Source of the DNA: a virus
Virus record (IMG/VR): IMGVR_UViG_2847502069_000001
Location: 5,495 to 69,494 of that record
Strand: one strand, 5' to 3'
DNA length: 64,000 nt
The position numbers were made by a program, and so were the translations under genes. Shown here in pieces: positions 1-30,670 of the stretch. Below the pieces are notes generated by a model, which ran no database searches, had not been told where the DNA came from, and saw nothing but the letters and a program-made list of their open reading frames with translations. Position 1 is the first letter of the stretch; each line of letters opens with the position of its first letter.

Positions 1-216
1 TACATCAGGATAATCAGAGCCTATACCAACGGTTTTTACTGTCGTTTTTTTACAACTTGGGCAGTTGAACATTTCGATTCTTAATGCATCAGGTTCTTCG
101 TCTATAGCGCTAAATCCTCTATTTATCGAACCAAAAGAAACCTTTCTATATCTGTAAGTTTCGTCAATCATAGGGATACTGGCATTACAGAAAGGGCAAA
201 TAAAACTGTCGTTCAT
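1..216 (-). CDS. 5' part of a leftward gene with two CxxC motifs (possible DUF4145-type zinc-finger protein), runs off the window
   Basis: GGAGA RBS then ATG at 216; reads MNDSFICPFCNASIP...FNCPSCKKTTVK open to base 1; not in ORF track. Confidence 0.6.
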   Translation of the reverse strand, partial: MNDSFICPFCNASIPMIDETYRYRKVSFGSINRGFSAIDEEPDALRIEMFNCPSCKKTTVKTVGIGSDYPDV

Positions 217-370
217 AAAATCTCCATTCTACATTTTTGTTTGAACACTTACATTATATCACGGAGTTATGATATCGCTCACAATGAGCAGGGAAGACTG
301 GCGAACAGGTTCGACTCCTGAACTTCCCTTACTGCGAAAGCAGAAATTTAAAACACAGAAAGGAACCGAT

Positions 371-5282: not shown

Positions 5283-5835
5283 AGAAATGAAAAGACCGAT
5301 TAGCAATATCACTCAAGATAGTATCAAGCCTTTACTAAGCAATGCCGTAGAGTTTTATACTAACAAAAATAGGGAAGCTCACAAATGTATTCAAGAACGA
5401 GATGAATATATCAATTATCTTGAAAGTAAACTAAGTAACGCAAAACAACAGCAAGCCCTGCCAGTCGTGCCTGATTTTGTTGCAGAGTGGATTGAATGTG
5501 TAAAAGAAAAAAATAATAATGCGCTAGCTTTACTAGATGATGATAATATGCCAGACGATGTGAATGAGTGGCTTTTCTTTCAAAGAAATGATGACAATAT
5601 CAAATTGATTCTTCGTGCATGGCTAGACGGCTACACAGTCGAAAAACCGCAGCTGTTCTATTTGGTGAATACACTGACAAGACAATATCTGTATCGTAGA
5701 GATAAGGTTAGTTTTGGCGAGCAAGGTTATTGTAAGGACTATGACGATAAACCACTTGCTTACTGTTTATTCACCAAACAAGAAATCGACAGCATGCAAA
5801 CTGGGAGCTATGAACAGATTGAGGTGGAAGAATGA
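5275..5835 (+). CDS. DUF1642-family phage protein
   Basis: LPVVPDFVAEWIE...LRAWLDGYTVEK motif; GGAGG RBS. Confidence 0.8.
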   Translation: MTKEMKRPISNITQDSIKPLLSNAVEFYTNKNREAHKCIQERDEYINYLESKLSNAKQQQALPVVPDFVAEWIECVKEKNNNALALLDDDNMPDDVNEWLFFQRNDDNIKLILRAWLDGYTVEKPQLFYLVNTLTRQYLYRRDKVSFGEQGYCKDYDDKPLAYCLFTKQEIDSMQTGSYEQIEVEE

Positions 5836-6176: not shown

Positions 6177-6567
6177 AATTTATATCGAAGGTAGATTTAA
6201 AATGCCAGTTGTTAATACTGACGAATTTGGCTATGACGAAGAAGAAGTTAAAAAGTTAGACTGGGAAGATTTTGCAAAAGATGAATTCTGGAACAGTTGT
6301 GATGATATGGGCGAACTAGAAGATAAGTATGACATTACTTTTCATAAGGTCCAACCCCAGCTCACGATTCCGAAAAACATAGCGAAAAAAATTGACAAAT
6401 TTATAAAAGTACTTCACTTTTTAAATGAATTTGAAGCAATTAAATTTTTATCAGCTATGGACCTTAATGGTGATAGAACACCGCAATGGCTCAAAGATAA
6501 CCCTATGCTAGTTTTTGCCTACCTCTCAGGCAAAGCCCTCGGAGTTGATTTAGTGAAAGTGGTGTGA
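6169..6567 (+). CDS. Phage hypothetical protein
   Basis: GGGAG RBS, ATG 6169. Confidence 0.7.
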   Translation: MSEIYIEGRFKMPVVNTDEFGYDEEEVKKLDWEDFAKDEFWNSCDDMGELEDKYDITFHKVQPQLTIPKNIAKKIDKFIKVLHFLNEFEAIKFLSAMDLNGDRTPQWLKDNPMLVFAYLSGKALGVDLVKVV

Positions 6568-6619
6568 TTATGACCGACAAACTAATATCGCTGGTCAATG
6601 ACTGGTGGGGAGGGATTGA

Positions 6620-7290
6620 ATGATTGAGTATGAATGTTATGATTGTCAATCTTCTTTTATGACAATGGATGATGAAATGTATGAAAAATGTCCATTCTGT
6701 GGATGCACCGATTTTTATACTTTAGACGAGGAGGACAACCAATGATTAATATAATTTTATGGGTATTCCTGGTAGGTGATGTTATTGGCGCAGGAATGGT
6801 AATTTATAACATTGGCAAACCAAGAATAATAAAGCCAATAGATGCGAGTATTTATATTGTAGTTGAATTAATAGTATGGATTGCTCTGATTTTGAAATTG
6901 ATAGGAGTTGGATAATGAAACTTTTGTGTAAGCTGTTCGGGCATAAGTGGTCGGAATGGAAAATTTATTTATTTGGCACTCATGAAGAACGCTCTTGTCG
7001 TCGTTGCTACATCAGAGATAAACGAATTCCACGATCAGACCTTGACGAGTCAGAGAACATGTTCGGGGAGGAATGATGTATAAGAAAGCAACAATATTTA
7101 TTATATGTATGATTATTGGAATGGCAATTTATGTTGTTATGGATTACTTCATTCAAAATGCTACACCATTTAGGTGGATTGTTATTATAGCAGCTTCTGC
7201 ATGGTTTGCTTATTCATCAGAATTTGAGGAGAATCACAATGACAGAAGCTGAAAAATGGCTTGATAAACACATGGATTGAACACAAAAAA
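6620..7290 (+). CDS. Run of very small coupled phage ORFs (zinc-ribbon 6620-6745, membrane 6742-6915, DUF1660-like 6915-7076, further small ORFs)
   Basis: Each has an RBS and overlapping start/stop; MKLLCKLFGHKW is a typical lactococcal phage motif. Confidence 0.6.
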
Positions 7291-8083
7291 ACTCCTGCTA
7301 GACAACAAATAGCAAGAGTTAAGTATGAACTGGCCGAGTTCTAATTTAATGTAAAATAAATCCAAAATCTAGATTAATTTGACCAAGATTATTATAGCAC
7401 TATTAACATTATTTTGTCGTTAACAAATGGCAACAAAAAAGTCTCGGTTGGCCAGTCGAGACATGGATAGTTATTTCAAATTCGCTAGTTATATTTTATC
7501 CAATTTTATTATAACACTATTATAAAACAACTATTGTTAACAAAAGATAATATAAAAGCCCGAACTGACCAGGTTCGAGCGAAATTGTGAATTCTAACAT
7601 TTATATTTTTTTGGTCCACTCTAGTATAGCACTAATCAAATTAAAAAGCCCAAGCTGACCAAGCTTGAGCGATTGTTGTAAAAATTATTAGTTACTATTG
7701 AATGGTCACATTCATTATACCACTGATTAATTGATAACTATGAAATTTGATTTATTAAAAAATCTTTAACTATAACAAAAAACCCGAACTGACCAAGTTC
7801 GAGTTATATGTTCTAGGTTTAAATTTTATTCTTAAAATTTAGGTCTACTACATTATACCATAAGAAAAATAAGTTATAACAAAAAAGCTCGAGTTGACCA
7901 AGCTCGAGCGAAATACTGAACAATGTTGCGAAGTTTATTTTTGGTCTTAAATATTATAGCACACAGAACAATAATTTATACCAAAATAAAAAAGCCCGAA
8001 CTGACCAGGCTCGAGTGCAAGAGTTAGTAAACAACTTAGTTCTATTATTATTATAATATTTTTGGTCAGTTATATTATATCAC
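7285..8083 (-). ncRNA. Tandem array of 7 putative small-RNA transcription units
   Basis: Each unit on the minus strand: TGnTATA(A/C)T, 6 nt, GACC (GGTC or GGAT in the two divergent units), AU-rich variable region, GC-rich hairpin, U-run. Confidence 0.8.
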
Positions 8084-8129
8084 ATATACTGAGCTAGGAA
8101 CTCGCTAAACTCAACTGGAGGAATAAATA

Positions 8130-8402
8130 ATGAAAGACAATAAACAAGTATCATTGATTCAAAGAACACTGCTAGAAGTTGCACAATTTAAAAAACATAA
8201 TCTAAATGAATTTTTGATAGGGGAAACGGATTGGTGGTATTCTCCTATCAATGATATTGTAATGGCTATGACTAACGGAGAAAAACCTGATCACTTTAAA
8301 TATGCTGAAGTAGAAACAAACGATTGGCTATGGGTTATGTCAACAATAGACGGAAATCTTGTATTGGAGGGAAAAGGCGGAATAGGAATCGAGGTTGAAT
8401 AG
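8130..8402 (+). CDS. Phage hypothetical protein
   Basis: GGAGG RBS, 90 aa. Confidence 0.75.
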   Translation: MKDNKQVSLIQRTLLEVAQFKKHNLNEFLIGETDWWYSPINDIVMAMTNGEKPDHFKYAEVETNDWLWVMSTIDGNLVLEGKGGIGIEVE

Positions 8403-8577
8403 AATGATTGCAAATATAATTATCATAGCCTACGTGCTATTACTGATTCTTGGAATGTTCGTTACGCCTTACGCAATTGGAAAGCCAAGAAGTCCAATAA
8501 GTGTTGGAACTGCAACCTTTAATATATTATTTGGGATTGCGTTTCTAATATCATTATATTTTAAATTAATTAATTAA
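8395..8577 (+). CDS. Small membrane protein
   Basis: Two hydrophobic segments; GAGG RBS. Confidence 0.65.
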   Translation: MNRMIANIIIIAYVLLLILGMFVTPYAIGKPRSPISVGTATFNILFGIAFLISLYFKLIN

Positions 8578-8637
8578 ACAAAAAAGCCCACGGCAATGGG
8601 CTTTCCAAACTGATTTATTCTAATACTATTATAACAT
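8578..8637 (-). ncRNA. Short antisense promoter-terminator unit upstream of the late activator
   Basis: Minus-strand TGTTATAAT (8636-8628) followed about 45 nt later by AAAGCCCA-TTGCCG-TGGGCTTT hairpin and U-run. Confidence 0.5.
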
Positions 8638-8652
8638 AACAGGAGTTAGAAT

Positions 8653-8952
8653 ATGACACAAGAACTGACGAAAGCACAATGGCATGATGTTCGAATGACC
8701 TTAAGAATTATCATTCGTAATAAGAAGAATGCCAAACAATCTCAGCTTATCAATGAAGCATTAGATAATATTAAAGATGAAGATGATCGTAAGATATTCA
8801 AACGTTATTACATTGACGGTTGGGGAATCATTAAGATCACAATGAATATGTATTACTCAAAGACTGCAGTCATTGCTAGAAATAATAAAGCAACGCAACA
8901 GTTTGCTGAGAAATATGACGGTGGTCATTTACTTAAGATGTTCCATGAATAA
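8653..8952 (+). CDS. Late transcriptional activator (RinA/ArpU-like)
   Basis: DRKIFKRYYIDGW...YYSKTAVIARNNKA HTH pattern; last gene before the packaging module. Confidence 0.75.
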   Translation: MTQELTKAQWHDVRMTLRIIIRNKKNAKQSQLINEALDNIKDEDDRKIFKRYYIDGWGIIKITMNMYYSKTAVIARNNKATQQFAEKYDGGHLLKMFHE

Positions 8953-9000
8953 TATAAAGAACGCTACTTTTTCGTAGCGTTTTTGTTTTACGATTGAATC
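8951..9000 (+). promoter_or_regulatory. Putative activator-dependent late promoter, copy 1
   Basis: ACGCTACTTTTT with TTGAAT starting 33 nt after motif start; same geometry at 12560 and 19221. Confidence 0.65.
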
Positions 9001-29659: not shown

Positions 29660-30670
29660 AAGTTTGCTATAATTAATTTCTAACACTGATCCCCCTTAAT
29701 TGGGGGTCTTTTTTTGTTAATAAATGTTACTGTTTTTCTTAAGATAAATTAGTATAATATCCTTATCGTAAATGCTATTCCAAATACAAATACAAATAAC
29801 TAAGTATTTCTGGAGAGATAAAGCGCCCTTTTCCAAAGCGAGGGCGTTTTTCTTTACAAGGAAAGCAGTAAATTGTATAATGATCCTACCTTTTAAATTA
29901 AAGTTATAAATAACTCCGAGAACATCGTTTTGACTAAGTGACGGTGTTTTTTTATTTGAAAACGAATACAAAAAGTAGTAGAATGAATTCATCTTACCTA
30001 TATAAGATGACGTCTGCCCTTAAACAGGGCTTTTTGTTCTAGTTAAGGAAGTAGATATATACTATATTTACCCAAAAATATAAAATTTTTCATAAAGTTT
30101 ACTCCAAAGCGTCCCTCTCCTAACTGGGGCGCTTTTTTTGTGCTATAATATAGTCGGGATGATTGTGGGATTTCATCCTATTTCTAGAGTTAAGCTGCTC
30201 TTCGGAGCGGCTTTTTTTATTTGTTTCATATGATATAACGAAACTCTTAAACATGGGTGTCAGCAATTTTCTGGCATTTTTCATATTATTTTGTAAATGA
30301 GAAAAAAGAAGTAAATAAATGTATAATCAAAATTTTTCATAAAGTTTTAGTCCTAATATCCCTCTGAACAAGGGGCATTTTTTGAATTGTCTATATAATT
30401 CTTGACAAAATAAAATGATAAGAGTAAACTAAGAAAATCAAGATCTAATCTTGATATCTCCTAATCTAAGAGTTCTAAAACTCTTAACAAATTATTTAAC
30501 GCCCTTTATAGGGTGTTTTTTCATAAATTTATGCACAAAAAAAGCTCTAGCTGGATGACTTCAAGGAGTCCAACTAGAGGATGATGAGTGTTAGTACAAA
30601 TTCAGAAAAAGTTTCGTGTGTACAAAAAATAAGAGGTACCAACAATTTAAATATTATCAATTTTTTAGAC
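29660..30670 (+). ncRNA. Cluster of about 9 short promoter-terminator cassettes (plus one on the minus strand at ~30535-30670)
   Basis: Alternating -10 hexamers (several with -35 at 17 nt) and GC hairpin-plus-T-run terminators; no credible ORFs. Confidence 0.65.

Follow-up and report, generated by a model that had tools for sequence, protein, structure and literature searches.

Small antisense RNA genes of phages and arrays of sibling small RNA genes are both already known. The OOP RNA of phage lambda, about 77 nucleotides (nt) long, belongs to the first kind together with sar of P22 and c4 of P1 and P7. These are short RNAs with their own promoter and intrinsic terminator, transcribed in the opposite direction within an early lytic operon, and OOP is complementary to the read-through early transcript beside a gene end. 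The second kind, found in Firmicutes, includes LhrC1-4 of Listeria and the streptococcal csRNAs, which are encoded by paralogous genes arranged head to tail, each with its own promoter and terminator, and have conserved ends and a divergent middle. Here we analyzed 64,000 nt of viral DNA (the window), positions 5,495 to 69,494 of the IMG/VR virus record IMGVR_UViG_2847502069_000001. At 7285–8083, its minus strand holds a stack of seven small units, each with a predicted promoter, a short RNA and a terminator. What appears to be new is the unit family, whose RNAs are predicted to begin with GACC, and the seven-unit stack.

The units resemble OOP in layout but share no sequence homology with it. 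They lie in intergenic gaps, whereas OOP runs over a coding end. They come as one to seven sibling copies with an invariant 5′ GACC and a YUGGUCA loop, and they precede a late activator, whereas OOP precedes a lysogeny regulator. The LhrC and csRNA genes are chromosomal and regulator-dependent, and their RNAs are trans-acting and use C-rich loops to bind ribosome-binding sites. In contrast, the present units are phage-borne, AU-rich and without an anti-Shine–Dalgarno motif, and no trans target was detected for them.

Differential RNA sequencing of Lactococcus lactis MG1363 found 28 small RNAs of unknown function in prophage intergenic regions (van der Meulen et al. 2016, PMC4829306). One prophage RNA of ~70 nt, classed as antisense in that paper, was confirmed by Northern blot (PMC4829306). 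The likeness of these RNAs to our units is by description only (intergenic, lactococcal prophage, ~70 nt for the one on the Northern blot), and the paper holds no analysis of family, structure or position (PMC4829306). CRISPR arrays and the ToxI and antiQ repeats share with the stack a superficial look of repeat plus variable segment. They differ from it in that each present unit has its own promoter and terminator, the apparent spacers are recurring alleles, and no cas or toxin gene is present. No description of the GACC-unit family was found in literature searches.

Seven promoter–RNA–terminator units on the minus strand

The strand was read over 7100–8300, the whole window was scanned for extended −10 boxes, and the units were cut out individually. 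Seven units were found head to tail on the minus strand, confirming the original prediction, which had been made from the sequence alone. They are listed below with their scores against R1, a covariance model for which 60 units from other contigs were used (E, expect value; bp, base pairs; z, fold z value).

7988–8082, minus strand: unit 1; −10 box 8082–8074; predicted RNA 8067–7988, 80 nt; 5′ GACC; loop CUGGUCA; R1 77 bits, E 2e-12
7881–7961, minus strand: unit 2; −10 box 7961–7953; predicted RNA 7946–7881, 66 nt; 5′ GACC; loop including UUGGUCA; R1 86.7 bits
7777–7860, minus strand: unit 3; −10 box 7860–7852; predicted RNA 7845–7777, 69 nt; 5′ GACC; loop UUGGUCA; R1 67.7 bits; core with an extra predicted 9-bp AU hairpin (z −3.0), the same core being present in 27 of 118 related loci
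7643–7722, minus strand: unit 4; −10 box 7722–7714; predicted RNA 7707–7643, 65 nt; 5′ GACC; loop UUGGUCA; R1 76.8 bits
7554–7631, minus strand: unit 5; −10 box TGCTATACT, 7631–7623; predicted RNA 7616–7554, 63 nt; 5′ GACC; loop CUGGUCA; R1 79.2 bits
7435–7516, minus strand: unit 6, a distant relative; −10 box 7516–7508; predicted RNA 7501–7435, 67 nt; 5′ GGAU; R1 30.8 bits, E 0.002; predicted pairing of 5′ GGAUA with UAUCC right before the terminator; loop including UGGCCA; unit found in 3 related loci
7285–7399, minus strand: unit 7, a distant relative; −10 box 7399–7391; predicted RNA 7384–7285, 100 nt; 5′ GGUC; R1 23.3 bits, E 0.05; predicted internal hairpin with loop CGGCC and a separate 11-bp terminator (z −2.9)

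The −10 boxes of the stack read TGnTATAAT, with TGCTATACT of unit 5 as the one exception. Across the 64-kb window, the same motif set had 38 matches on both strands together, so that about 0.2 boxes would be expected per 700 nt, against the seven seen. The distance from the box to the 5′ tetramer was exactly 6 nt in 7/7 units, and the tetramer was GACC in units 1–5, GGAT in unit 6 and GGTC in unit 7. The claim of an extended −10 box and an exact 6-nt distance held for all seven units. The promoters are predicted to be of the sigma-A extended −10 type, without a clear −35 element and with a purine start 7 nt downstream. A consensus scan of 6500–9000 gave 10 terminator-like sites versus 0.9 ± 1.0 in shuffled sequences, and 9/10 were on the minus strand.

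The predicted RNAs were 63–100 nt long. They had been described as ~65–80-nt products of small independent RNA genes antisense to the lytic operon, and the predicted promoters and terminators and the orientation are in line with such genes. In the predicted folds, an AU-rich 5′ part was unpaired or weakly paired and was followed by the terminator hairpin, and units 3 and 7 had additional hairpins. The RNA body of the units was 35–70 nt, AU-rich and mostly single-stranded. Terminator loops were (C/U)UGGUCA in units 1–5 and a larger loop with UGGCCA in unit 6; in unit 7 the internal hairpin was GAACU-CGGCC-AGUUC, apart from the terminator. No small open reading frame (ORF) with a ribosome-binding site was found in the units on either strand.

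A unit family of Lactococcus P335-group phages

The stack was searched against 50,697 phage records with megablast and blastn. It matched 71–72 records, all of them Lactococcus phages or unnamed phage assemblies. The matched P335-group phages included TP901-1, BK5-T, ul36, r1t, bIL285, bIL286, bIL309, P335, Q33 and 4268. Wherever a listed record had a conventional map, the match was opposite the lytic-gene strand and at the end of the early region. Among the listed records, no core matches were found in other phage groups, and no 936-type or c2-type phage was listed. The distant BLAST search gave at most two match places in any record among those listed. TP901-1 had one unit in the ORF26/ORF27 gap, one in the ORF27/ORF28 gap and a shorter mini-unit in the ORF28/alt gap; BK5-T had two units.

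A search with the terminator pattern hit more than 118 IMG/VR contigs. Among species-representative bacterial genomes, the same pattern hit L. cremoris HP and otherwise two tiny actinomycete contigs. The latter, from Streptomyces sp. (5.8 kb) and Lentzea sp. (1 kb), carried the exact terminator of a lactococcal-phage unit and are most likely assembly contamination.

An R1-type unit has an extended −10 box, 6 nt, GACC, an AU-rich body, a 7–8-bp GCUC.../...GGGC stem, a YUGGUCA loop and a T-run. Units 1–5 scored 68–87 bits (E 1e-10 to 3e-14) and were clear members; units 6 and 7, with the lower scores listed above, were only distant relatives. Units 1–5 belong to one family, so far seen only in Lactococcus P335-group phages. 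Elsewhere in the window, R1 gave weak matches (13–23 bits, E 0.05–5) at 29873–29952, 30055–30138, 30141–30217 (plus strand) and 200–261 (minus strand), several of them in the post-lysin region. These are generic promoter-plus-terminator look-alikes and not family members.

The sample contained 101 single units, 8 doubles, 18 triples and 6 stacks with four or more units. A seven-unit stack, the largest in the sample, was present only in the window and in one near-identical contig. Rfam 15 at the gathering threshold returned two tRNAs for the whole window, both outside the stack. For 7000–8400 with E up to 10, the best E was 0.85, and the best matches were Arrc14, at 23 bits versus a threshold of 99, and CRISPR-DR44, at 22 versus 35. 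The skipping-rope and Drum motif classes had been named as possible homes for the units; neither gave an Rfam match, and this membership was not supported.

In the alignment of 60 units, five parts did not vary: the −10 box, the GAC with which the RNA starts, the CUC of the 5′ stem arm, GGUCA in the loop, and the T-run. The terminator hairpin was the only consensus structure of these 60 diverse units. The compensatory changes claimed for the stems were real, with two swapping pairs across 114 distinct members: pair 5 was A-U in 56 and G-C in 51, and pair 7 was G-C in 66 and A-U in 28. A U·G stem pair was present in 99/114 members. Its plus-strand equivalent would be a C·A mismatch, which argues that the hairpin is selected as minus-strand RNA. 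The YUNR motif fitted 103/114 distinct loops.

The 5′ sequence GACC(A/G)nAAAAUA was kept in all core types. The cores fell into ~15 recurring types common to different phages, and at least one of the window's seven core types was present at ≥90% identity in 61/118 related loci. The same core was found with different promoter spacers and stems, giving modular recombinants, and chimeric stems were also present. Within a core type, the cores seem to be the most conserved part relative to the handles, but the types were defined by core similarity, so that this comparison is circular and supports mosaic recombination only. In some core types, including that at 7707–7722 of the window, the start site lay inside a short palindrome (GAATG-TGAC-CATTC, GTG-TGAC-CAC).

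Conserved ends around a variable core had been proposed for the units. The conserved ends and the divergent middle were found, but the cores are recurring alleles rather than freely varying sequences. The further proposal of guide-like or spacer-like cores does not agree with the ~15 recurring types that different phages have in common. That each of the seven units has its own promoter and terminator, together with the recurring core types, also does not fit a CRISPR array, and no Cas domains were found in the neighboring genes that were searched.

The original prediction also held that the 5′ GACC pairs with the loop GGUC in a pseudoknot and that the two covary, and it had named the lack of covariation beforehand as a ground for refutation. 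In 60 diverse members, 5′ GACC(A) and loop (U)GGUC were pairable in 98% of cells. Three of the five pairs were invariant, two varied on one side, and none changed on both sides. Uncompensated variants were GACU, UACC, GAAC, loop AGGUC and the unit-6-type UGAU. The GGUC/GGCC pairing of unit 7 was a single case, seen in three near-identical loci. The covariation claim therefore failed in this sample, which had been gathered with a pattern that fixes the loop, so that the power of the test was limited. The predicted 5′/loop pairing is possible. The strong conservation of both tetramers, GACC at the 5′ end and GGUC in the loop, nevertheless calls for an explanation.

Position before the late activator and candidate roles

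The genes flanking the stack are all on the plus strand: a DUF1660 gene and a gene for a membrane protein of 59 amino acids (aa), and then, beyond the stack, genes for a 90-aa and a 60-aa protein, the activator, HNH, terS and terL. By this order, the far end of the early lytic operon of a P335-type Lactococcus prophage holds the stack, and 570 nt separate it from the late activator that follows. The features around it are as follows.

6876–7076, plus strand: DUF1660 gene, left of the 59-aa gene
7073–7252, plus strand: 59-aa small membrane-protein gene; stop 33 nt before the unit 7 terminator
7239–7280, plus strand: 13-codon relic, its last residues being EKWLDKHMD, of the C-terminus found in DUF1660 genes of TP901-1-type phages
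8083–8129, plus strand: conserved linker or 5′ untranslated region, holding the ribosome-binding site of the next lytic-strand gene
8130–8577, plus strand: two small accessory genes, one for a 90-aa protein (phrog_25226) and one for a 60-aa protein with two predicted transmembrane (TM) segments (phrog_26874; 8395–8577)
8571–8636, minus strand: second kind of mini-unit; −10 box 8636–8628; predicted RNA of ~50 nt, 8621–8571; 5′ AGAAUAAA; terminator loop UGCC
8653–8952, plus strand: late-gene transcriptional activator, 99 aa

The best match of the activator was phrog_30014 (E 3e-57), a group of unknown function; it also matched phrog_248, "transcriptional activator" (E 2e-9), and DUF1492 weakly and below threshold. 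A precedent for its position comes from staphylococcal phages, where the cI-controlled early transcript carries the late activator as its last gene (PMC3753634).

The units followed several position rules. Convergent plus-strand ORFs beside units usually had their stop codon 1–7 nt from the end of the T-run. These ORFs were very diverse, encoding small membrane proteins, DUF1660 proteins, a 97-aa coiled-coil-like protein and other soluble proteins. For 97 units, the next element was another unit and no ORF. The linker between the −10 box of a unit and the next ribosome-binding site had the same sequence before unrelated genes; that of 8083–8129 also precedes ORF27 and ORF28 of TP901-1 and ORF60 of BK5-T. 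At 1690–1900 of LT985571.1, from a related phage, a gene for a ~66-aa protein with two TM segments lies beside two units, its stop abuts a unit terminator, and cassettes are interleaved with units. The EKWLDKHMD relic at the left edge of the stack suggests that the tail of the DUF1660 gene took up the 59-aa gene as an inserted cassette, and 7239–7280 appears to be a recombination scar at this edge.

The second mini-unit was present in 93/118 related loci, without exception between the GACC units and the activator, and also before alt of TP901-1. Its −10 box is found upstream of the activator gene's ribosome-binding site and only a few nt away from it, and the terminator loop in this second family is UGCC or UGCA. 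In 93/93 loci holding both kinds, the GACC units were 68–1151 nt (median 405) before the activator-abutting mini-unit, which places them no more than about 1.2 kb ahead of the late activator. Taken together, the predicted units make up a conserved, position-specific family of promoter–RNA–terminator units.

In 6500–9000, only one weak lytic-strand terminator-like site was present, and no conserved lytic-strand promoter was found in or after the stack. The early transcript must therefore, as we infer, cross the stack to reach the activator, and each small RNA would then be perfectly complementary to an intergenic segment of it. One candidate for a lytic-strand promoter, with the complement of GACC as its −35 element, was rejected; it was a weak match beside unit 1 only and was not conserved in TP901-1.

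The predicted layout is that of OOP, with a promoter and a terminator of its own, inside the early operon and in opposite orientation. The reading we favor, tentatively and with somewhat less than even confidence, is that the units are cis-antisense mini-genes of the lambda OOP kind; they would damp read-through to the activator, or set its timing, and double as cassette joints. The YUGGUCA loop begins with a YUNR U-turn, a motif that Franch et al. (1999) reportedly described in recognition loops of antisense RNAs. This loop would first kiss the complementary UGACCAR loop on the early transcript, and the two RNAs would go on to pair from there. Duplex cleavage and head-on interference, the latter caused by seven strong convergent promoters, would result in less or later RNA reaching the activator. 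Late and lysis genes would thus be kept silent in the lysogen and be timed after induction. A like action is proposed for the second mini-unit, which abuts the activator gene's ribosome-binding site. Units would normally stand singly at the joints of small accessory gene cassettes, and the seven-unit stack probably arose by recombination at such joints with loss of the intervening genes.

Expression of the predicted units in the lysogen is plausible. Contigs over 7254–7585 (436 nt, spanning units 6 and 7) and 7642–7712 (79 nt, in unit 4) were present in RNA libraries, which comprised one food-fermentation metatranscriptome, the source of the 79-nt contigs, and three small transcriptomes of one organism. 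Strand and ends were unreadable in these contigs, and a DNA origin is possible.

Several points weigh against the OOP-like reading. The RNA data are contigs only, which may include DNA and carry neither start sites nor strand. A purely cis or interference role leaves the near-invariant 5′ GACC and loop GGUC unexplained, and it also leaves unexplained that core types persist unchanged while promoter spacers and stems are swapped. Seven-fold damping of its own late activator would need some benefit to the phage, and a single unit suffices in most relatives.

The best of the alternatives, which we nevertheless consider unlikely, is that the units encode trans-acting sibling small RNAs whose open AU-rich 5′ parts seed imperfect pairing with host or phage mRNAs; a lysogen would then make a whole set of regulators comparable to LhrC or the csRNAs. 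They would have the classical layout of such RNAs, a single-stranded 5′ region followed by a terminator, and would be paralogous siblings each with its own promoter. The 5′ GACC(A/G)nAAAAUA shared by all types and the core types that stay intact across phages are consistent with trans action, as is the presence of intergenic prophage small RNAs of unknown function in L. lactis (PMC4829306). However, the target searches gave nothing beyond chance. In the 74-kb contig, the longest exact complements of the cores were 11–13 nt, equal to those of shuffled cores, and duplex energies with 88 translation-initiation regions of the window were no better than those of shuffles. BLAST against the L. cremoris HP chromosome gave only prophage homologues and chance 16–17-mers; short host-mRNA seeds were not scanned.

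It is rather improbable that the units serve as an inter-phage interference panel. In that case, RNAs of the resident prophage would pair with matching joints in the early transcripts of P335 relatives and block their late activator. Constitutive RNAs with constant handles would capture the transcripts of incoming or co-resident relatives by loop–loop kissing, with no protein effector, and several core types stacked together would widen the range. The antisense geometry is the same as in the OOP-like reading, the promoters look constitutive, and several prophages per lactococcal strain are common. The core types shared with 61/118 related loci fit action on relatives but do not show it. Such RNAs would strike their own phage equally, and an invader could escape by losing its unit, whereas in fact nearly all of these phages have units. 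The constant 5′ GACC and the GGUC loop could instead be a handle for an RNA-binding partner. The original prediction had stated that no partner protein is evident nearby, and this was borne out.

We give no greater weight to the view that the units are mainly recombination joints for cassette swapping and that their transcription is incidental, which is compatible with the OOP-like reading. Units that abut the stops of very diverse ORFs, the same linker before unrelated genes, chimeric stems, identical cores with different spacers and stems, and the DUF1660 scar at the stack edge all agree with it. But recombination needs no intact −10 box at a fixed 6 nt, no G·U hairpin with compensation and no T-run, and these are kept in nearly every copy.

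A role as decoy or anti-defense RNAs is more doubtful still. Here, an RNA-binding defense protein of the host, for example a type III toxin of the AbiQ, AbiF or AbiD kind, would be bound by the constant 5′ end and the loop, and the conservation of these two parts does suggest that a common factor recognizes them. In lactococci, small RNAs serve as antitoxins in systems of the AbiF/AbiD group (review PMC13064643). However, no Rfam match was better than E 0.85, and there was thus no match to a ToxI-like or abiF-like family. A search of lactococcal plasmids for Abi-linked homologues gave one 71-kb prophage-like record and no other match, and no toxin gene was adjacent to the stack. On these three grounds, mimicry of type III antitoxin or Abi RNAs, an idea of the original prediction, was not supported. 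In addition, the units do not have the form of tandem repeats excised from a single RNA, and their position is fixed before the late activator and not in an anti-defense island. The 71-kb record, NZ_CP059051.1, is filed as a Lactococcus lactis plasmid and holds units 6 and 7 at 2408–2713 with 99.3% identity; it may be a prophage or a phage-plasmid.

The least likely role, which we regard as very improbable, is that of type I antitoxins that each neutralize the mRNA of a convergent small membrane-protein gene. Three convergent neighbors do encode small membrane proteins with 1–2 predicted TM segments (7073–7252, 8395–8577 and the one in LT985571.1), but many units follow soluble-protein genes, 97 follow another unit without an ORF, and the RNAs do not overlap coding regions.

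Meaning for P335-group phages

Among the phages of dairy lactococci, the main temperate ones belong to the P335 group, and TP901-1 serves as a model of how these phages regulate their genes. Antisense mini-genes before the late activator are not in the P335 annotation and not in Rfam. The units mark sites of accessory-cassette exchange and so help to explain the mosaicism of the region. If the RNAs work in trans against related phages, this would amount to a new type of exclusion system made of RNA only. If they set the threshold or timing of late and lysis genes, they would add a layer of control to the lysis–lysogeny program, with a bearing on prophage stability in starter strains.

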